Notes: generated by a model from the sequence alone, not told the origin. A DNA stretch of 64,000 nt from Oligoflexales bacterium (GCA_044236265.1 JBIIGV010000003.1:180-64179); one strand, 5' to 3'; numbered from the stretch's first letter, positions 23,332 through 31,816 are shown. Program-made: numbers and translations.

Positions 23332-23551
23332 GGACTCTCAAAGCTTCCTTCGAAACGGCTTTCACCGACTATCGGCTTGACCATATCTAGTCAACTGCAA
23401 AAACCAGGCCAATTTAGAAAACTTTAGAATTTATTTTAAGTAATTGAATTTATTGTATTATTTTTCATCTATTTCCTGCCGTTGTGCACATGTCACCATG
23501 TGTACACAGGCCCCCGAGTTGCAGTCGTGGTGCATTCGACACGGGGCGACT

Positions 23552-25420
23552 TTAGCGCCGGATGTCGCGCCCGAGCCAGTGAGCAATTCGTCCATCCCCC
23601 ATGGCTCCGACCAACTCCGAAGGAACCAGGGACTTTCCGGGATAGCCCCAAGCTAATGTCACATACAGATCGGCCATAGATGTGCCCTCGACAATGCCGA
23701 GGTTCAATATCCTCTCGCCGACCTGAACAGCAAAAGCCTCAAAGTGTCTTGAGAGCCGGGCCGCGCTAATTTCAAATCTACTGACCTGCCCCGTCTTTGG
23801 AGCACGCTGCCGAAGCTCGGCAATTGAGGATACCTTTAAAGACTGAGAGTCGTGCAAACCTAGGTCTTTAAGGGCCGCCTCGACACTGGGTGATTTGCCA
23901 AAATGGCGAAGTAAACTATCCCACTGCGGTACATCGCCCGCAAAACCCCATCCAGCATTTGCCAGCAACTTACACTGCTCAACGACATCAGGCCATGCTC
24001 CAGTCTCTGACAAGACAACCATTTCAGCTAACAACGCAAAGCGTAACGCCACTGACAAAGGAATGGGATGTTTCCATCCTTGCTGCCTGAGAACACCATT
24101 TGTCAGAATATCTGCCAATTCGTTTGCATAAGTAACAGTGTTTTCTGATGCTTCCTGAGATGGCTCTAAATGCTCAATCGCCTCACACCATCCGAGATTT
24201 GCTTGTCCAAAATTGCCCGAAAGCCGGTAACGTGTCATCAAGCGCGTTGATCCCACTCCAAACTCTAGGAAATCATTAACTGAGCAAGCCAACCATAGAG
24301 AGGAGACGGAGTTCGCATGACCCACAAACCAGTCGAGACGTCCGCGCCAAGACACAAGAAGGTCTTTTCTGGAAAGACCAACTTTTTGTGATCGACTAAG
24401 AATGGTTTCCAGATATTCACGAAGCTGCTCTTCGGATGGCGCAATCATTAAGAGTCGAATCTTTCGCGCAAGTAACGTGTAGAAGACTGACTGCGGAGGG
24501 ATGCCACGACTTAGGTCTATCGCCAAAGTACCCGAGCCCACAGAGGCCGTCCACCATCTGTCTTTTGAACCAATTTCATAACGTGATATGCGCCTTGAAA
24601 GCCATGAGCGATAATCTTCAAATAAGACTCTGGCTGCACAGCCGGCGCGAACCTGGCTCATGGTAAGAGCCCTGGCTCCAATATTTCGCTCTCTCAAAGC
24701 GTTGTATCCAGACTCCAAATGACTGACAGCGATCTGTTTTCGTCGCAAAGACAAAGTTGAACGATCTTCGACAACACCCAACAAATCAGGCGTCTCCTCT
24801 AGCAACTCCCGTCGTGTTGTTGATCTGAGGTTGTTGATCGTCTGGCTTTTTTTGATCCACGCATAAAGTGATTCTATCCCTTTGGCGTCGGCCCAGTTTT
24901 GCCCCTGTAAAACCAGAGATATCAATCCTAATGTGAACGCATCTTTGGAGTGTAAGATCGCATTTTTTCTCACATCTTCCAAAGACTTGTAGGCATCAAA
25001 CCGACGGAGTGCGCCATTTGCGAGCGGTGGAAGCATATCTATGTAGACTTCCGGAAAGCCGACTTTCGCATAAGGATTTGCCCAAACTCGCCCCTGACAT
25101 GCGAGAGCCAAGTCCCACCACGAACCAAGGCAGTCGTGACTCGAAATAAAATACCACTTGGCCTTTGACAGACAAATTCCCAATAGAAGCAAATGCACTC
25201 TTTGAAAGTGAGCGACTAAATCTTCCCAGTAGAGCTTCGATGTAATGCTATCAAGCCAATCTCGGTGATAGTCGTGACATGCATCTTTTGATCTGAGCAA
25301 AATGATCGTGTTCGAATTTGCTGATTCTAATTTTGACTCAAGCCGCGCAACAAATTCTGCCGATGCCGGATCATAAAGAGATCCATTCCAATCTATTTCA
25401 ATTGAGATGGTGTCCTGCAT
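23552..25420 (-). CDS. degenerate FadJ/FadB-like (crotonase + 3-hydroxyacyl-CoA dehydrogenase fold) protein
   Basis: CLGSWWDLALACQGRV..KVGFPEVYIDMLP aligns with FadJ CLGGGLELALACHGRV..LGLPEVQLGLLP; C-terminal GIVEGTSMADLYVTLAWGYP aligns with GVI....GD.GAV.G.GFP; no GxGxxG motif. Confidence 0.7.
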   Translation of the reverse strand: MQDTISIEIDWNGSLYDPASAEFVARLESKLESANSNTIILLRSKDACHDYHRDWLDSITSKLYWEDLVAHFQRVHLLLLGICLSKAKWYFISSHDCLGSWWDLALACQGRVWANPYAKVGFPEVYIDMLPPLANGALRRFDAYKSLEDVRKNAILHSKDAFTLGLISLVLQGQNWADAKGIESLYAWIKKSQTINNLRSTTRRELLEETPDLLGVVEDRSTLSLRRKQIAVSHLESGYNALRERNIGARALTMSQVRAGCAARVLFEDYRSWLSRRISRYEIGSKDRWWTASVGSGTLAIDLSRGIPPQSVFYTLLARKIRLLMIAPSEEQLREYLETILSRSQKVGLSRKDLLVSWRGRLDWFVGHANSVSSLWLACSVNDFLEFGVGSTRLMTRYRLSGNFGQANLGWCEAIEHLEPSQEASENTVTYANELADILTNGVLRQQGWKHPIPLSVALRFALLAEMVVLSETGAWPDVVEQCKLLANAGWGFAGDVPQWDSLLRHFGKSPSVEAALKDLGLHDSQSLKVSSIAELRQRAPKTGQVSRFEISAARLSRHFEAFAVQVGERILNLGIVEGTSMADLYVTLAWGYPGKSLVPSELVGAMGDGRIAHWLGRDIRR

Positions 25421-26377
25421 TTAGAGTACCCCACCATCTTTTTTCAAAACTTGCAGCCGACATTGACGATCCACCATGTAGAACATACTTCCGTCTTTCG
25501 CACGCGAAAGAAACGCCAGCAAATCTCTGACAGGATGCCAGCCAAGTGTTGCTCCTGGAACATGAAGCTTGGACAAGAGGGTATTTAATGGATATTGCTG
25601 TTCTGCAATCCACAACGCGACTCCAACACTTGGAGCCGAGATCCAAATCTCAGGGCAGTCTTCACCTGCGCGCATCGCGCTCATAATTTCCACATCAAGC
25701 TTTGGCGACCCACACCACACTTCTGGTTCAATGACATTCAGACGATGAAGCCTCATGTCAACCGCACTAGCTGAACGCGCCATTGGGACGTCAACTATTG
25801 CCGCAAGCCAGGACGCCGATCGCGGCTCTCCCATGACGCTACTGCGCATGGCGCGATTACGCCAACTACGACCGATTGACGACAAGCCTGAAAGACGGCC
25901 AAGGTCGTCCGTTACCAGAAATGAGCCCTCTTTCTCAAGTCGTTCTGCAGTTCGGCCCCAGAGCAGAAACTGACGAGCTATAAAGTCAGGTATTAGAGAT
26001 GCATACTGCGCAGCAAAGATCGACTGCGCACTGGTGAACCAGGTTGGAACCGCAGTGGACCAAGAACCTACGAAAATAAATCTCGCACCATCTGTAACAT
26101 CAGAAAAAATGGTCACTGGGTCAATTTGTTCGAGGGTGCCTTGGCCCTGAAAATAGGTCAAAGCCAAATTATCTTTTGCATCTTGATGATCTGGAGAAAC
26201 GCTAATTCTCGGAGACGCGCCCAGCCGCTCGCCCATCACCATCGCACCCATATTCACGCAATCAAGCCATTTGCCCCAATCTATTCTCCGAGGCAAATAA
26301 TCCGATGGCATAGATACAAGATCGATACGACCGATCTGAAGAGGCAAACAAAGTGCCTCAGCGGGCTGCAGTTGCAT
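25421..26377 (-). CDS. degenerate thiolase-like (FadI-like) protein
   Basis: EIWISAPSVGVAL resembles EINEAFAAQAL and KLHVPGATLGWHPV resembles KVNVNGGAIALGHPL; catalytic Cys motifs absent; ATG at 26377 overlaps the end of the TPR gene. Confidence 0.55.
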   Translation of the reverse strand: MQLQPAEALCLPLQIGRIDLVSMPSDYLPRRIDWGKWLDCVNMGAMVMGERLGASPRISVSPDHQDAKDNLALTYFQGQGTLEQIDPVTIFSDVTDGARFIFVGSWSTAVPTWFTSAQSIFAAQYASLIPDFIARQFLLWGRTAERLEKEGSFLVTDDLGRLSGLSSIGRSWRNRAMRSSVMGEPRSASWLAAIVDVPMARSASAVDMRLHRLNVIEPEVWCGSPKLDVEIMSAMRAGEDCPEIWISAPSVGVALWIAEQQYPLNTLLSKLHVPGATLGWHPVRDLLAFLSRAKDGSMFYMVDRQCRLQVLKKDGGVL

Positions 26378-27458
26378 GAGCCATTCCCTCGTCAAGCCGC
26401 TGGATACCTGCACGCAGTTGACCAACCAAATCAGGCGAACGTGTCTTCTCACTGAGAACAATCAGCCAATCGCGCACCGTTACCCAATTTTTGAGTTTAA
26501 TCGCACAGCTGATAAGACCTTCGATAGCTTCAAAAAAGTTGTCATTGAGCTCAAGAGTCTTTTGATAGTTTTCGTAAGCCATCTGAGTTTGATTTAGCTG
26601 CTCGTAAATGGTTCCAATACGAAAATGGACGATTGACCTTGTTTCGGGGTCTTCAACCACGAGCAGGGCAGATCTCAAAACTTTAAGGCAACCATCAAGA
26701 TCTCCCAAGCGATAGTACGCTTCAAAGTGAATGGTCGATGTGTCAAGCGTACTTCCCGCGCAATATTCTTCGATATAGCGAATGGCTTCCCTGCAATCCC
26801 CTAGCTGATACAGATAAACCGCCGCAAGCTCTTGTGCGTAGCGAAACACCTCTTGCTTGTGTTTGGCAGAGGATAGAAGTCTCTTTAAAACATCAATAAC
26901 CGCAGGCCACTCCTGCGACTGCGAGTATAGATTTCTGAAATAACGTAGTGCCTTGGCGTTATCAGGCTGCATCTTGCGCAAACGCTCGTAGAACTGGTGA
27001 AGCAAACTTTCGTTGTGAGCCTTCTTTTCAAAAATAAAACAAAGTCTTTCAACTGCGGCAATCTGATCCTCTCGCTTGGAAAAAACTTCCCAGCTGCCCG
27101 TGAGAAGTTCGCCCTCCGTCTTGTAGTCTTCAGACTCAAGAACCTTATCCAGCACTTGAATTCTGAAATCTGAAAACGACATTTTCTTTGACTGGATCAG
27201 CTCTCGACTCGTCTGCGATGCCGCTTTGACGTCCTCCAAATAAAGGATGTCCACCTTGATGAGACGAACAAAATTGTCAATGGATCCCTTTGGATCGGAT
27301 TTGATGCTGGCGCGAACCAAATCAAAGAACAAGGTCCAACACTCGTGTGCTTCCAAGGAATCCAGAACCCGTAAATAATCGGCTGAATCAATCTGACGGG
27401 GGTTTGTAGCCAGGCCTAAGGCCTGATCGATTGGCATCAATTCAACCTGACTTGTCAT
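26358..27458 (-). CDS. TPR repeat protein
   Basis: Repeats such as VHFRIGTIYEQLNQTQMAYENYQKTLELNDNF. Confidence 0.8.
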   Translation of the reverse strand: MTSQVELMPIDQALGLATNPRQIDSADYLRVLDSLEAHECWTLFFDLVRASIKSDPKGSIDNFVRLIKVDILYLEDVKAASQTSRELIQSKKMSFSDFRIQVLDKVLESEDYKTEGELLTGSWEVFSKREDQIAAVERLCFIFEKKAHNESLLHQFYERLRKMQPDNAKALRYFRNLYSQSQEWPAVIDVLKRLLSSAKHKQEVFRYAQELAAVYLYQLGDCREAIRYIEEYCAGSTLDTSTIHFEAYYRLGDLDGCLKVLRSALLVVEDPETRSIVHFRIGTIYEQLNQTQMAYENYQKTLELNDNFFEAIEGLISCAIKLKNWVTVRDWLIVLSEKTRSPDLVGQLRAGIQRLDEGMAHATAAR

Positions 27459-27468
27459 GAGTACGACC

Positions 27469-28062
27469 TCAGGATTTTAAACCATTCAGAATCAGAGAGG
27501 ATGCTTTCTTGGACATCTGCGAGTAGTCAAAAACCTTGCTGTCAAATAGCCACTGTAAGCTTAGACCGTCGATGACAGCAATCACGAATGACGCATAAGC
27601 ACTTGCGTCAACTTTGCGAAATGCATTTTTGTCGACGCCATCTTGAATAACTTTGGCAGCCGCTTCGCGGAACTTGGCGTAATGAGCTGCAATGACTTTC
27701 CTGATTTCTTCCTTCTGATTGATCTGAGTCCAGAAGTCCATGTTGACCTGGTAGTATTCTTTGGTGTTACGAACGATGTCGAAACAAACCTCAATAAAGA
27801 TCTCCAATCGACGCCATGGATCAGAGATGGCGCTCATCTCTTCGCCCAAAACACGTTCGATATCGCCGGCAACTTTATCCAAAACGCACATCATCAGTTC
27901 ATCTTTATTCAAAAAATAATAATGAATGATGCCTTTGCTGACACCGGCTGTGCGCGCTACGTCCTGCATCGAAAAATTATGGTATCCATGCTTTGTGATG
28001 CACTCGACCGTTGCTCTTACAATCTGCTCTTTTCGTTCCGCTGCTACGTCGTGCTTGGACAT
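27469..28062 (-). CDS. TetR/AcrR family transcriptional regulator
   Basis: RKEQIVRAT..I...GY...SMQDVARTAGVSKGIIHYYF.NKDEL HTH; BetI-like C-terminus. Confidence 0.93.
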   Translation of the reverse strand: MSKHDVAAERKEQIVRATVECITKHGYHNFSMQDVARTAGVSKGIIHYYFLNKDELMMCVLDKVAGDIERVLGEEMSAISDPWRRLEIFIEVCFDIVRNTKEYYQVNMDFWTQINQKEEIRKVIAAHYAKFREAAAKVIQDGVDKNAFRKVDASAYASFVIAVIDGLSLQWLFDSKVFDYSQMSKKASSLILNGLKS

Positions 28063-28099: not shown

Positions 28100-28129
28100 A
28101 TGGTAGCACCCTAGGGGGGGGACTTTCAA
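28100..28129 (-). promoter_or_regulatory. sigma70-like promoter of the tetR operon
   Basis: Minus strand TTGAAA-N18-TACCAT with an extended -10 TG. Confidence 0.4.
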
Positions 28130-28215: not shown

Positions 28216-29337
28216 ATGTATTTCAAAAAAATTTTAATGGCACTTACGTTTAGTGCAGCAGCAATGCCAAATATCAGTGCTGCTGGTGAATTGAAGTGGA
28301 CTCATTATGGGTTAAGACCTCTTGCCATGGGCAATGCCTATGTTGCCGTTGCTGATGATTACAACGCACTATTCTATAATCCTGCTGGCTTGGCGCGCCT
28401 CGATAGCTGGAGCCTAGAAGTATTTAACCCCCGCCTCGGTGTTTCCGCCACAACACTCAAGACTATCAATGACTTCACCAACCTTGCGTCCTCGAACTCC
28501 AGCAGTGTTGATGCGACTTTGAGTGTTTTTGAAACCATGACGGGGAAACCGCAGTGGGTTAATCTTGGCGCCACCCCGCATTTTATTTTACCGGGATTTG
28601 GCCTCGGTATTGGACTTGATATTGGCGGCAGCATGGTGATTCACCGCAGCACAATCTCTGCCGATCTGGACGCTGGCGCCAATGTGATCGTGCCAATCGC
28701 CTTTGCCAAGAACTTTTTGGAGGATCGCCTCAGCATCGGCGCCACTATTAAAGGCGTTTACAAACAGGGCGTTGAACGGGAGTTTAGCTTAGCCGATATC
28801 AATGCATTCTCTAAAAGTCAGACATCTTCAAGTGGCAACCAACTAAAAGACTACGTCGTTGGCGGCACGGGATTTGGCGTAGACCTCGGCATGCTCTTTA
28901 CTCCTGTAACAGTTGGAGAGCCGACCTTTGGCATGAGCGTGACCGACATCGGTGGGACCCCGTATAAGGCATCGAGTATGGGAGATCTTAAATTTGGAGC
29001 ACCAAAGCCACGGGAGCCTTCCCTCAACACGGGAATCAGCTTTAAGCCAATTAAGACAGGTTCCTACTACGTTTTAACAAGCATGGACGTGCATGCTGTC
29101 AATCAACCGATTCACTTCTCTAAAAAGGTCAATTTTGGTGCCGAGTGGGGTCTGTCAAAGGCTCTAAAGGTTCAGGCTGGCCTTCATCAGGGCAGCCTGA
29201 GCGGTGGCCTGCAACTTGACCTGTGGCTGTTGATTTTACGGTTTGTAACTTACACCGAGCAGCTCGGAACAGTGGCTGGCGAGAGCGAATCTGCCGCCGA
29301 CCGTCGCTACATGGCTCAGCTTAAACTCATTCTTTAA
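28216..29337 (+). CDS. outer-membrane beta-barrel, FadL/PorV/TraF-like
   Basis: Signal peptide; GLRPLAMGNAYVAVADDYNALFYNPAGLA plug motif; amphipathic beta strands. Confidence 0.75.
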   Translation: MYFKKILMALTFSAAAMPNISAAGELKWTHYGLRPLAMGNAYVAVADDYNALFYNPAGLARLDSWSLEVFNPRLGVSATTLKTINDFTNLASSNSSSVDATLSVFETMTGKPQWVNLGATPHFILPGFGLGIGLDIGGSMVIHRSTISADLDAGANVIVPIAFAKNFLEDRLSIGATIKGVYKQGVEREFSLADINAFSKSQTSSSGNQLKDYVVGGTGFGVDLGMLFTPVTVGEPTFGMSVTDIGGTPYKASSMGDLKFGAPKPREPSLNTGISFKPIKTGSYYVLTSMDVHAVNQPIHFSKKVNFGAEWGLSKALKVQAGLHQGSLSGGLQLDLWLLILRFVTYTEQLGTVAGESESAADRRYMAQLKLIL

Positions 29338-29362
29338 TTGTCTTGAACAATCACAAGGACGT

Positions 29363-30169
29363 GTGACTATGCAAACATCAGTGATTGCAACTTTTTTCAT
29401 CAGCCTGCTTGCGTCGGGACAGCTGTTTGCCGCCGGCTTGGATGAGCTTTCAAAAAAACCAGAGCCCGCTCCAGCCACCAACAAGGTGACAACCCCTTCG
29501 ACACCAAAAGCTGAGACTCCAAAGCAGGTCGCACCCGCAACCGCTAAGCCTGCCGGAGCATCAAAACCAGCAAAGCAAACGGCAGAAGACCAGGAAGAGT
29601 CGGAACAAACTCAAGAAGCAGCGCCAACGGAGAAGGTTGCTGCAAAACCAATGGCTAGAAGTGGTGCCAGCAAGACAGTTGAAAACAGGCTATCCGTAGG
29701 CACATCCTTAGGCTGGTCTGTAGTAAAGCCATCAAAAGGAACATGGATTGGCATCGGTGCAACGGACATGTTTTTTCGGTGGAAAACCGCAAATACTGAC
29801 GATCATCCGCTGGCCGCAACGCTTCGCTACGCGCCGTTAACGGGTGTTTGGAACACAGGAAATCGTGACTATGATGTAACCCTTCACGGCATCTTCGCGG
29901 GAGCTGATTATTTGCTCCCCTTGCGCGCTGCTGCTAACCTGAGTGTAAAAGCGGGTGCGGAACTCGGTTATCTCCTCCCTTACGCCAAAGCCCAAGATGG
30001 GGCTCCCGAATCAAGTGACGTCAAAAAAGGCTCCTTAAGCTTCGCCGTCAGTAGCGGGGCTGACTGGAGCCTCATGAACAATAAACTAAAAGTTGGACCA
30101 GTTATTCGACTGCAAGCCATTGGTTTTACGGTGATCAACCTAGGCGGCGCTGCTCAATTTGTGTTCTAA
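29363..30169 (+). CDS. outer-membrane beta-barrel protein with Pro/Ala/Lys-rich N-terminal linker
   Basis: Signal peptide, low-complexity linker, amphipathic strands, terminal Phe (AQFVF). Confidence 0.6.
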   Translation: MTMQTSVIATFFISLLASGQLFAAGLDELSKKPEPAPATNKVTTPSTPKAETPKQVAPATAKPAGASKPAKQTAEDQEESEQTQEAAPTEKVAAKPMARSGASKTVENRLSVGTSLGWSVVKPSKGTWIGIGATDMFFRWKTANTDDHPLAATLRYAPLTGVWNTGNRDYDVTLHGIFAGADYLLPLRAAANLSVKAGAELGYLLPYAKAQDGAPESSDVKKGSLSFAVSSGADWSLMNNKLKVGPVIRLQAIGFTVINLGGAAQFVF

Positions 30170-30340
30170 AGTCGCATTTAGCAAGCCATCCTTAGTGTTT
30201 AAATAGCTATAAGTACTACTCTAATTTCAAAAATGGCGGTGGGACGACCCAGTCTTTCCGCCATCCTTATATTGACGCAAAATCGAGCTAGCTGATGGCT
30301 GACCTCTTGAGTACGATGAGCAAAACAAGGCGGACATCCG

Positions 30341-31816
30341 ATGACACAGGTCTCAAAATCGCTGGTATTTAAATTACTCGTGACGACAGTTTTGTCGGCA
30401 GCTTTAACGTCATGCCAGCGAGGCTCGTCAAGAGGTGGACTTCAGGTCAGCTTTGTTGGTCAGGGTAGCTACGAGATTTATAAAATTGCCGGCGAGCAAC
30501 CACTGCAATTTGTCTCTGAGACCACCGCTAAATTTAACGAAAAGGTTCTACTTCCGCCTGGAAGTTACATGGTCCTTGCTGATTGTAGCAGTGAGGTCGT
30601 TAACATCTATCCAAGTTCAGATGTTACGCTGACAGCTCACGCCGTTAACTTTGTCCCGCTGCAGCCACCAACCGACCAAGACAAGTTTTCTGTGCAGTGC
30701 ACGCGATCAGAGCGCACTCATACTCGTCAAAATCTTCAAAATCACTTCTCACTGGCTGTGCTTGCGGGAACACGAGATCTCTTAGTTGGAATGATTCCGC
30801 TTCGTCTTGAGCTTTCACCAGCTGAAACCAAGGAAAGTCGCGTGGTCAGTCACGTGCTTTCATCAATCTCTGTGGCTAAAGCTACGCCAGATGCGGCGGA
30901 CGTGTTTTTCGTGTCTCCCGTTGGCGATATCAATCCTTACACTGAAAGCCAAAATCCAGGGTCACGTCTTTATGTTCTTTCTGGTTCTTACGATTTGCAA
31001 CTTAATGGGACCGAAATGACTGTGGACTTAAGGGAAGGTGAAGCCCGTGTGGTTGAGCCGGGAACACTGGTTATCGAAACAAGTAAAAATGCTGATCTTG
31101 AGCGCGCAGAAAAAGTCAGTGGAGCACCACTGTTTGCTGAGATTAACGGCGAACATTTTATGGATCTTAACACCCCCTATCCAGTGCTTCCAGGCAGCCT
31201 TGACGTGAGACTCGCCTCCTCTCTTCGTGCGACAAATTATGAGATTGAAGAGGGAGAAACCTTGAAGATTCACGCTCGAAACGTGACCGTAGATCTCGGA
31301 TGTGATGATAACGACTGGGCCTGCCTCGGATCACGAAAAGTTCGTCTGTTTGCCAAAGACAAAAACTATCACTTCGCAGAGTCACAAAGTGATAGTCCGA
31401 TATTATTTCTGGAAAAAGACGTTGATCTGGGAATCGAGGGATCACGCAACATCAAGTTAAAACTTAGCGCTGGGGACGACCTAAAAGTGAAGGTTGGATT
31501 TCTGGAGGTCATTCCTACGCCTTCGTTTAAACCAGGGGTCCTCACTGACTTGATGCGCGTTGAGCCAAACGGCGGAGGTTTAGCGGGAGCCAGTCTTGAC
31601 ATGGTGCTTGATAAACCAACCACGATGCCCCTTGTCGCCGGTTACTATCGCTTGGCTCAGTACACGTTTACGACCTCCGATGGCGGACGTAGGAAAAACA
31701 CCCAAGGTGTCTACATTACTCACGGTCAGAGGACTAAACTTGAGGTGCAAACCTATCTAACTGAAAAAAAGATGGCGATCTTCTCAGGCGCACAAGAAGA
31801 CTCTTCAAAGCAATAA
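30341..31816 (+). CDS. hypothetical lipoprotein with beta-sandwich repeats
   Basis: Lipobox LTSC; recurring L.PGSY / VLSGSY / VLPGSL / LVAGYY motifs. Confidence 0.6.
   Translation: MTQVSKSLVFKLLVTTVLSAALTSCQRGSSRGGLQVSFVGQGSYEIYKIAGEQPLQFVSETTAKFNEKVLLPPGSYMVLADCSSEVVNIYPSSDVTLTAHAVNFVPLQPPTDQDKFSVQCTRSERTHTRQNLQNHFSLAVLAGTRDLLVGMIPLRLELSPAETKESRVVSHVLSSISVAKATPDAADVFFVSPVGDINPYTESQNPGSRLYVLSGSYDLQLNGTEMTVDLREGEARVVEPGTLVIETSKNADLERAEKVSGAPLFAEINGEHFMDLNTPYPVLPGSLDVRLASSLRATNYEIEEGETLKIHARNVTVDLGCDDNDWACLGSRKVRLFAKDKNYHFAESQSDSPILFLEKDVDLGIEGSRNIKLKLSAGDDLKVKVGFLEVIPTPSFKPGVLTDLMRVEPNGGGLAGASLDMVLDKPTTMPLVAGYYRLAQYTFTTSDGGRRKNTQGVYITHGQRTKLEVQTYLTEKKMAIFSGAQEDSSKQ

Follow-up and report, generated by a model that had tools for sequence, protein, structure and literature searches.

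What becomes of a β-oxidation complex when a bacterium keeps a second copy of it whose active sites have eroded? This question is raised by an operon in a 64,000-nucleotide (nt) stretch of DNA from an Oligoflexales bacterium (GCA_044236265.1, JBIIGV010000003.1:180-64179; hereafter the window), in which genes for a TetR-family regulator and a tetratricopeptide repeat (TPR) protein are followed by two open reading frames (ORFs) resembling the thiolase FadI and the crotonase-dehydrogenase FadJ. An initial annotation, made from the DNA alone, had described the last two as a catalytically eroded pair sensing acyl-CoA for the TetR regulator through the TPR protein. We find that an order-specific family of degenerate FadI/FadJ paralogues is real, that it is probably a putative acyl-thioester-binding complex, and that this second copy of the complex very likely no longer burns fatty acids. 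The four packed genes lie at 23552-28062, in agreement with the coordinates first given, with a gap of 10 nt between tetR and the TPR gene, an overlap of 20 nt between the TPR and β-like genes and 0 nt between the β-like and α-like genes:

27469-28062, minus strand: tetR, TetR-family regulator of 197 amino acids (aa), first gene of the operon
26358-27458, minus strand: TPR gene, 366 aa
25421-26377, minus strand: β-like ORF, 318 aa
23552-25420, minus strand: α-like ORF, 622 aa

The tetR start, an ATG at 28062 (MSKHD...), is common to its orthologs. The β-like start was placed where orthologs begin (MQxQ); the longest frame, opening with a TTG at 26461, would be 346 aa long. The peptides first taken as fold landmarks were located in the translations, CLGSWWDLALACQGRV, GFPEV and AWGYPG in the 622-aa protein and KLHVPGATLGWHPV in the 318-aa protein.

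The α-like protein is a full-length relative of the trifunctional-enzyme (TFE) α subunit (FadJ/FadB). Sequence profiles establish the homology of its crotonase domain, and the dehydrogenase half can be recognised solely from its predicted fold:

residues ~1-200: crotonase domain
between the two: helical linker
residues ~295-622: degenerate 3-hydroxyacyl-CoA-dehydrogenase-like half

Taken singly, the window's α-like and β-like proteins matched no Pfam family at E ≤ 1, and the α-like protein gave the FadJ equivalog of NCBIfam (TIGR02440) only a local match of 15.2 bits, the cut-off being 968.45. Database searches returned 26 α-like relatives with identities of 98-35%, two of which bear the automatic label 'enoyl-CoA hydratase/carnithine racemase'. 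A profile of 23 relatives reached the crotonase core of Escherichia coli FadJ (8bnu_C, E 7.5e-5). A broader one, enlarged by 12 very distant members from genomes of the same order, covered the whole crotonase domain when run against the PDB, aligning residues 4-195 to residues 14-209 of the same chain (E 7.6e-10); it also matched dozens of monofunctional hydratases. The profile thus places the family in the crotonase superfamily (Pfam ECH_1, PF00378), the single window protein staying below the Pfam gathering score. Aligned by hhalign to 20 canonical FadJ-type proteins of related genomes, the α-like family matched with a probability of 96.9% (E 1.7e-10) over 567 columns, from residues 20-616 of the query to 30-689 of the canonical proteins. 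The N-terminal 200 residues carried the signal (98.1%, E 8e-14) and the linker none.

The structure predicted for the α-like protein with AlphaFold2 (AF2; pLDDT 77.9, pTM 0.80) agrees with these alignments. In Foldseek all the listed matches were full-length α chains of TFE or MFE1 enzymes, led by 8opy_A (E 5.5e-12), and VIA superposed residues 1-619 of the model on 12-707 of 4b3i_B (Z 16.4, root-mean-square deviation (rmsd) 7.0, 537 residues aligned). Residues 1-281 have the crotonase fold, matching RpfF, DfsA and enoyl-CoA hydratases with Z 15.1-15.6 and rmsd 3.6-3.8 over 221-224 residues. Independently of Foldseek, the C-terminal half matched stand-alone 3-hydroxyacyl-CoA dehydrogenases, 1zcj_A (Z 12.4, 310 residues, model 267-620) and 3mog_A (Z 12.0, 292 residues, model 295-622). 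The predicted model therefore combines crotonase and dehydrogenase domains in one chain.

The β-like protein is far more elusive. It has 19 close relatives, and an exhaustive hidden Markov model search of 1.84 billion representatives gathered 130 clusters at 50% identity, all of at most 384 aa and including no canonical thiolase. Profiles built from 18, 21 and 103 sequences found no meaningful match in the PDB, and hhalign gave no signal (probability 0.1%) against the FadI-type thiolases of related genomes. The AF2 model (pLDDT 75.7, pTM 0.82), on the other hand, matched 39 thiolase-type chains at E ≤ 0.001 in Foldseek (best 9.8e-5). When 48,161 chains were searched with VIA, independently of Foldseek, thiolase-family entries took the first 13 places. 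At their head was 8bnr_A, which belongs to the anaerobic TFE complex of E. coli (Z 14.5, rmsd 4.3, 297 residues); further thiolases came next at Z 13.9-11 and count as tied with it, within 1 Z. A look-up in the ESM Atlas was uninformative, the Atlas model being poor (pTM 0.16) and giving no usable matches. From its predicted fold, and from the position of its gene directly upstream of and abutting the FadJ-like gene, the β-like protein is predicted to be a shortened thiolase scaffold. Profile, hhalign, Foldseek and VIA matches thus agree with a thiolase-like and FadJ-like pair in the fadI-fadJ order, as was initially proposed.

In order to assess which chemistries could survive, we aligned 44 α-like sequences (the window, 8 close relatives and 12 + 3 + 20 distant members) and 103 β-like sequences. 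The NAD-binding GxGxxG was found in none of the 44: where canonical relatives read G-A-G-F-M-G, the Rossmann loop of the window protein reads S-R-G-I-P-P, and the two prolines are widely kept (P308 in 39/44, P309 in 41/44). The canonical segment GMHFFSPVEKMPLLEVV, bearing the catalytic His-Glu dyad of the dehydrogenase (HFFxP...E), falls on a variable loop of the window protein (414-430) in a low-confidence alignment (E 0.07), and the close-relative alignment holds no invariant His between residues 380 and 440. The family has invariants of its own, W491 (44/44), C108 (43/44) and G121 (43/44).

Thiolase fingerprints, as given in the MsTLP1 paper, comprise a CxS nucleophile, VMG, NEAF, GHP and CxG (PMC3406046). 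The β-like family has no conserved Cys or His: Cys reaches at most 12% in any column, three of the 103 sequences lack it altogether and nine have at most one, and NEAF and GHP are found in 0/103. The loss of the thiolase Cys motifs noticed in the window is therefore family-wide. A probable remnant of GHP is G279-W-H281-P, which we rejected as a working motif, His being present in only 37/103; a weak local hhalign alignment tentatively places W113 at the nucleophile position (E 0.5). The β-like proteins show motifs of their own instead, (E/D)xxG(K/R) and PDxxxGWxP, with G160 kept in 93/103 and G279 in 99/103. Judged from these sequences, the dehydrogenase and thiolase chemistries are in all likelihood dead.

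The crotonase pocket tells a less simple story. Its catalytic glutamates, the equivalents of E144 and E164 of rat hydratase, map through the alignments to D103 and E124 (GFPE) of the window protein. The first position is Glu in 34 and Asp in 10 of the 44 sequences, hence always acidic; the second is Glu in 33, Asp in 2 and Gly, Ala or Gln in 9. The initial annotation had read the GGGxE glutamate as lost (WWD), which overstated the case: in the window an Asp replaces the Glu and the surrounding glycines are replaced by S-W-W. The Gly residues preceding the first acid have given way to Ser or Thr and aromatics across the family (Trp or Phe at position 102 in 37/44); G99 and Ser/Thr100 are mostly kept. 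The FxAGAD oxyanion motif was likewise described as gone; canonical FIAGAD indeed aligns to CHDY in hhalign with 'AGA' deleted, but an Asp persists at the motif's place (D50) in 37/44. On this reading of the alignments, the one acid that is universally kept is the sole ancestral catalytic feature retained family-wide. Because the acids at 103 and 124 and the Asp at the AGAD place persist, the pocket may still bind or even process a thioester.

Both frames are open, as the initial annotation had noted, and neither gene is decaying, both being under purifying selection. Ratios of nonsynonymous to synonymous substitution (dN/dS), computed from unsaturated pairs only out of 36 compared per gene (28 for LpxC), were well below 1: 0.07-0.14 for the α-like gene (3/36 pairs), 0.04-0.27 for the β-like gene (5/36), 0.02-0.05 for TetR (2/36) and 0.04-0.08 for LpxC (3/28). 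A canonical pair exists elsewhere in the same genome, a check that the initial annotation had called for. On contig C26 a thiolase gene precedes a crotonase-dehydrogenase fusion; C74 (9582-12814, plus strand) has a fusion of reversed domain order, dehydrogenase then crotonase, in an 832-aa open frame followed by a thiolase; C171 has separate β-oxidation genes. In addition to the degenerate pair, then, the organism has at least two ordinary ones for β-oxidation. A search of 25 genomes, that of the window among them, revealed FadJ-type genes of 710-741 aa in 24. Of 20 such loci, 18 have a same-strand ORF of 376-483 aa immediately upstream of the gene, and the remaining two end at contig edges. 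The canonical order is thiolase (~441 aa) then α (~712 aa).

Whether the two degenerate subunits still associate was addressed by structure prediction. The α-β complex scored 0.37 (runs of 0.60, 0.16 and 0.37), the best of three controls reaching 0.01, with at least 52% of contacts common to the runs and a partner pLDDT of at least 76. Of 80 solved complexes 58 pass the score mark, as do 2 of 110 mismatched pairs; those passing with 0.60 or less are only 7 of the 80 complexes and both of the mismatches. Likeness to solved TFE complexes could raise the score. The complex check suggested at the outset thus lent weak support to its α + β part. From this prediction together with translational coupling, we consider that the α-like and β-like proteins probably form a complex.

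Related loci come from freshwater Oligoflexales-type metagenome-assembled genomes, and the 20 sequencing runs in which the locus is present are lake-water and other freshwater or aquatic metagenome DNA. A narrow α-like profile gave 57/130 genomes, an undercount, and was replaced by the broad profile. With the latter, at least 67 of 94 genomes of the order have a match reaching the C-terminal half; in 36 genomes of other orders, among the rows listed, only the crotonase region of 264-799-aa ORFs matched, and these are ordinary crotonase-family or FadB/FadJ-type proteins. The census counts are lower bounds, 48 rows being outside those listed. In the sister genus g3, three genomes hold the pair, as judged by synteny and weak profile matches. 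The collinear block across the order can be written P491-P268-OMP373 / tetR-TPR-β-α-(pyrF)-lpxC. Its tetR-TPR-β-α order recurs in 8/8 related loci spanning it and in 14/15 distant loci of the order, and so is not due to chance; the exception, L035, has tetR-β-α without a TPR gene. Synteny, which the initial annotation had asked to be checked, is thus conserved order-wide. The β-like stop lies within 13 nt of the α-like start in 15/15 loci (4-nt overlap in 7/15), and the TPR gene is directly upstream of the pair in 14/15. In a further 20 loci the β-like gene is immediately upstream of the α-like gene in 17, and a TPR gene lies upstream in 19.

Some loci depart from this layout. L088 (G012:C45) has a 562-aa α-like protein with no TPR or β-like gene detected upstream and lpxC in the opposite orientation, while in genus g19 (L040/L087) the α-like protein is 573 aa long with Gln at the second acid, and the β-like protein, 246 aa in L040, is undetected in L087.

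The TetR regulator behaves differently from the pair. It is a complete family member with a helix-turn-helix and a C-terminal ligand domain (Pfam TetR_N 54.4 bits, cut-off 24; TetR_C_6 58.7 bits, cut-off 27). Below the NCBIfam cut-offs it scores 100 bits of 201 as BetI and 83 of 200 as Bacillus-type FadR, and its closest solved relatives include 3whb, a 'Fatty acid metabolism regulator protein' (E 6e-12). Close loci have TetR proteins 84-95% identical, and order-wide the identity is 60-77%. At loci with a TetR of 64-77% identity, the α-like protein is 20-25% identical and the β-like protein is undetectable by BLAST; such fast divergence is, from the sequences, atypical of a housekeeping enzyme. 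In genus g5 (L068, L069), tetR (60-63% identical) sits between the outer-membrane protein gene and lpxC, directly before the latter, and the TPR-β-α trio is absent. Genome-wide, in 3/3 g5 assemblies (91-94% complete), the broad profile finds only canonical 726-848-aa proteins, so that the trio is missing as a unit. TetR persists without the trio in g5 and diverges far more slowly, which argues that it works on its own; it may itself be an important regulator. These observations do not support the idea that the pair is a sensor for TetR: the regulator stays 60-95% identical while the α-like protein falls to about 20% and the β-like protein escapes BLAST, and g5 dispenses with the trio. Nothing beyond co-transcription ties the pair to TetR. 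In close loci, TetR is more conserved than the adjacent essential LpxC (84-95% versus 70-90% identity).

The TPR protein is identified by several Pfam repeat families (TPR_1 31 bits, cut-off 27.8; TPR_14 29.8, cut-off 23.5; TPR_2 28.9, cut-off 27; TPR_19 28.8, cut-off 25). It is without signal peptide or hydrophobic segment, its maximum 19-aa hydropathy being 1.01, and its match to LapB in NCBIfam is 28 bits for a cut-off of 363. PADLOC gave no defence-system match for the α-like, β-like or TetR proteins and only a weak generic match for the TPR protein. Upstream of tetR, a consensus scan found one further feature:

28100-28129, minus strand: promoter-like site, TTGAAA, 18 nt, TACCAT, with TG before the -10

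Both of its hexamer blocks are conserved in an alignment of 10 related intergenic regions; it is a consensus match only. Two conserved TGCTACCA blocks, considered as a TetR operator, are read instead as extended -10 elements on opposite strands, and therefore as divergent promoters.

Taken together, the best explanation we can offer, tentatively, is a non-β-oxidising, putative acyl-thioester-binding complex under a FadR-like TetR. The last two genes would be an ancient, fast-evolving duplicate of a thiolase β and crotonase-dehydrogenase α pair, and descent from a FadI/FadJ-type pair is very probable. The duplicate would no longer be able to run the β-oxidation cycle. Its subunits, as translational coupling and the weak complex prediction suggest, would still assemble and, with the co-inherited TPR protein, would make up a cytoplasmic complex whose crotonase pocket might bind acyl-CoA or acyl-ACP with no turnover through the cycle; the operon would be switched by the autonomous FadR-like TetR encoded upstream. 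A purely binding or scaffolding role, with no catalysis at all, is quite possible. The stricter proposal, that the whole FadI/FadJ-type complex was turned into a dedicated non-catalytic acyl-thioester receptor inherited with the TPR protein as a three-gene unit across the order, is rather doubtful. Several results weigh against our explanation. An acid at position 103 in 44/44 sequences is what is expected of a working site, making residual catalysis a serious alternative. The α-like residues 290-622 taken alone align collinearly with canonical FadJ-type proteins over 289 columns with a marginal E of 0.07, the β-like fold comes from one AF2 model built on 18 sequences, and the sequence signal to thiolases is absent even with the 103-sequence profile. 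The complex prediction supports assembly only weakly. No RNA run is listed among those in which the locus is present, and a conserved palindrome looked for as a TetR operator in the intergenic region between tetR and the outer-membrane protein gene was not found.

The first of these points leads to the main alternative, a serious one although unlikely in our judgement: that a single activity survives in the crotonase domain, which would work, for example, on an unusual acyl-CoA or 3-hydroxyacyl-ACP as hydratase, isomerase or thioesterase. The dehydrogenase half and the thiolase-like subunit, both dead, would then be kept only as structural partners. Such an enzyme would resemble RpfF/DfsA or 3-hydroxyisobutyryl-CoA hydrolase, in which the first acid is the nucleophile. 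Besides the invariably acidic position 103, E124 (33/44), D50 (37/44), the mostly kept G99 and Ser/Thr100 and the purifying selection on the α-like gene are consistent with it. So are the structural matches of the N-terminal domain, RpfF 3m6m_A (Z 15.6, 223 residues), DfsA 5fus_A (15.4) and the hydratase 3lke_A (15.1), which are tied within 1 Z, and the hydrolase 3bpt_A (Z 12.9). It must, however, accommodate a second acid changed to Gly, Ala or Gln in 9/44 sequences of several lineages, an oxyanion motif that has lost 'AGA' in the profile alignment, a bulky Trp or Phe at 102 in 37/44 where crotonases have small residues, and a divergence far above that of the neighbouring enzyme LpxC. At the other extreme, decaying remnants or miscalled genes without function would account for the missing Pfam families and the fast evolution. 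This is refuted by conservation, and we regard it as extremely improbable: the frames are intact in 44 α-like and 103 β-like sequences, the latter family comprises 130 clusters at 50% identity, dN/dS values lie well under 1, and each family has its own invariants (W491 in 44/44 α-like; G279 in 99/103 and G160 in 93/103 β-like).

The remaining two explanations read function from the gene neighbourhood. The model of the initial annotation has the pseudo-enzyme complex sense acyl-CoA and signal via a TPR adaptor to TetR, as in DhaS-DhaQ. The four genes do form one tight operon conserved order-wide, and DhaS-DhaQ provides an example of a TetR protein under the control of a partner protein (PMC7590123). 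We nevertheless find the model improbable: a TetR 60-95% identical beside α and β partners diverged beyond recognition is unexpected of co-evolving contact partners, g5 keeps TetR directly before lpxC with no α-like gene found in 3/3 assemblies (91-94% complete), L035 has TetR-β-α without TPR, and a complete ligand-binding domain is present at the C terminus of TetR itself. Of that annotation, the derivation of the pair from FadI/FadJ and the erosion of its chemistry stand, with the corrections that the crotonase site cannot clearly be called dead and that the link to TetR is unsupported. The other possibility, which we judge very improbable, is a LapB-like role of the TPR protein, with the pair sensing 3-hydroxyacyl intermediates so as to tune LpxC and lipid A synthesis. 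The operon does lie between outer-membrane genes and lpxC, adjoining lpxC in most loci, its divergent neighbour is a PorV/FadL-like outer-membrane protein, and the TPR protein matches LapB weakly (28 bits). That score is, however, far below the cut-off of 363, a sigma-54-like promoter belonging to lpxC itself is conserved in at least 13 loci, pyrF stands between the α-like gene and lpxC in many lineages, so that being neighbours here does not imply a common function, and the whole region is collinear anyway.

The surroundings of the operon deserve description in their own right. The lpxC gene lies on the same strand, 220 nt downstream of the α-like gene, and the spacer contains a sigma-54-like TGGC-N7-TTGC ~66 nt upstream of the lpxC start (window 23397-23411, minus strand). 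The position of this site is kept in at least 13 loci across the order (L019-L027, L029, L032, L034, L038, L068). By itself the pattern occurs no more often in the window than would be expected (2 found, 3.4 expected), so that the evidence for the site is its positional conservation. In the window's genus a perfect palindrome, TGTGTACACA (23499-23508), stands ~100 nt further upstream, where the site of an enhancer-binding protein would be expected. A search of open-access papers and bioRxiv found no literature on sigma-54 control of lpxC. We rejected lpxC as the last gene of the operon, given its own conserved sigma-54-like promoter in the spacer; for the same reason, its adjacency says little about a common function. 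Many lineages have an orotidine-5'-phosphate decarboxylase gene (pyrF) interposed between the α-like gene and lpxC, where it overlaps or abuts the α-like stop. At L030:5010-5885 (minus strand) it is identified by Pfam OMPdecase (69 bits), and the ~290-316-aa ORFs of L031, L032, L036, L037 and L043 were assigned from size, position and similar N-termini; the window's genus is without pyrF at this place. Divergent from tetR, three envelope genes (window 28216-31816, plus strand) are kept order-wide. The first encodes a PorV/FadL-like outer-membrane protein, by weak matches only, and the others proteins of 268 and 491 aa, each with an N-terminal hydrophobic signal-like segment and neither with a Pfam family; the 491-aa protein has a lipobox-like LTSC.

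The nearest known systems share parts of this arrangement. The E. coli anaerobic FadI/FadJ complex (8bnr/8bnu, 6ysv) and other TFEs (Mycobacterium tuberculosis FadA/FadB, 4b3h; Pseudomonas fragi, 1wdk) have the same thiolase-then-α gene order. The full-length α architecture is common to both (4b3i_B, Z 16.4, 537 residues), FadJ being the best sequence match of the crotonase domain, and 8bnr_A is the top structural match of the β-like protein, tied within 1 Z with other thiolases. Unlike TFEs, the α-like protein is without the NAD loop and the dehydrogenase His/Glu dyad and scores 15 bits of 968 as FadJ equivalog, the β-like protein is without thiolase fingerprints and ~120 residues shorter (318 versus 436 aa), and the operon includes TPR and TetR genes in a genome that also holds a canonical pair. 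RpfF/DfsA crotonases (3m6m, 5fus, 6dgn) give the N-terminal domain its best structural matches (Z 15.4-15.6). They keep two acidic residues and, by their PDB entry titles, bind regulatory partner domains. In contrast to the α-like protein they stand alone (~290 aa); their Z scores are tied with those of ordinary hydratases, and no specific sequence relationship was seen (3m6m E 0.1 with the 23-sequence profile and 0.0081 with the broad one; 6dgn E 0.00031 with the broad one).

DhaQ is a paralogue of a kinase subunit. PMC7590123 presents DhaS-DhaQ of Lactococcus lactis as a TetR-family activator with a ligand-binding coactivator, and from that account the likeness lies in a TetR-family regulator encoded with a non-catalytic enzyme paralogue that binds the metabolite. 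The difference is that here TetR persists without the pair in g5 and contact between TetR and a partner is unsupported. For the β-like protein the closest parallel is MsTLP1 of Mycobacterium smegmatis, described in PMC3406046 as a thiolase fold in which CxS, NEAF, GHP and CxG are replaced, with no thiolase activity and unknown function. It matches the β-like model structurally (4egv, Z 9.5), and both have a thiolase fold with replaced fingerprints; MsTLP1 differs in being a monomer with an extra C-terminal β-barrel domain, conserved replacement motifs of its own and no degenerate α partner. The two families are unrelated by sequence. Open-access papers and preprints yielded no description of a pseudo-enzyme TFE or of Oligoflexia β-oxidation with TetR, and the Pfam and NCBIfam libraries recognise neither the α-like nor the β-like family. 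A jointly degenerate α/β pair inherited with a TPR partner thus appears to be undescribed.

Two protein families are defined by this work, the β-like with 130 clusters at 50% identity and the α-like in at least 67 genomes. They probably also set an annotation trap, in that 'enoyl-CoA hydratase' labels could make metabolic reconstructions count a second β-oxidation system. If the receptor proposal is true, the complex would sequester or report a lipid intermediate rather than degrade it, and would be, to our knowledge, the first case of both TFE subunits surviving together as pseudo-enzymes. Trifunctional β-oxidation complexes are textbook examples of substrate channelling, and here nature has run the experiment of deleting two of the three chemistries while long preserving the scaffold. 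If the complex assembles, it would reveal what in the architecture is maintained by selection apart from catalysis, for instance for assembly, ligand binding or the recruitment of partners.

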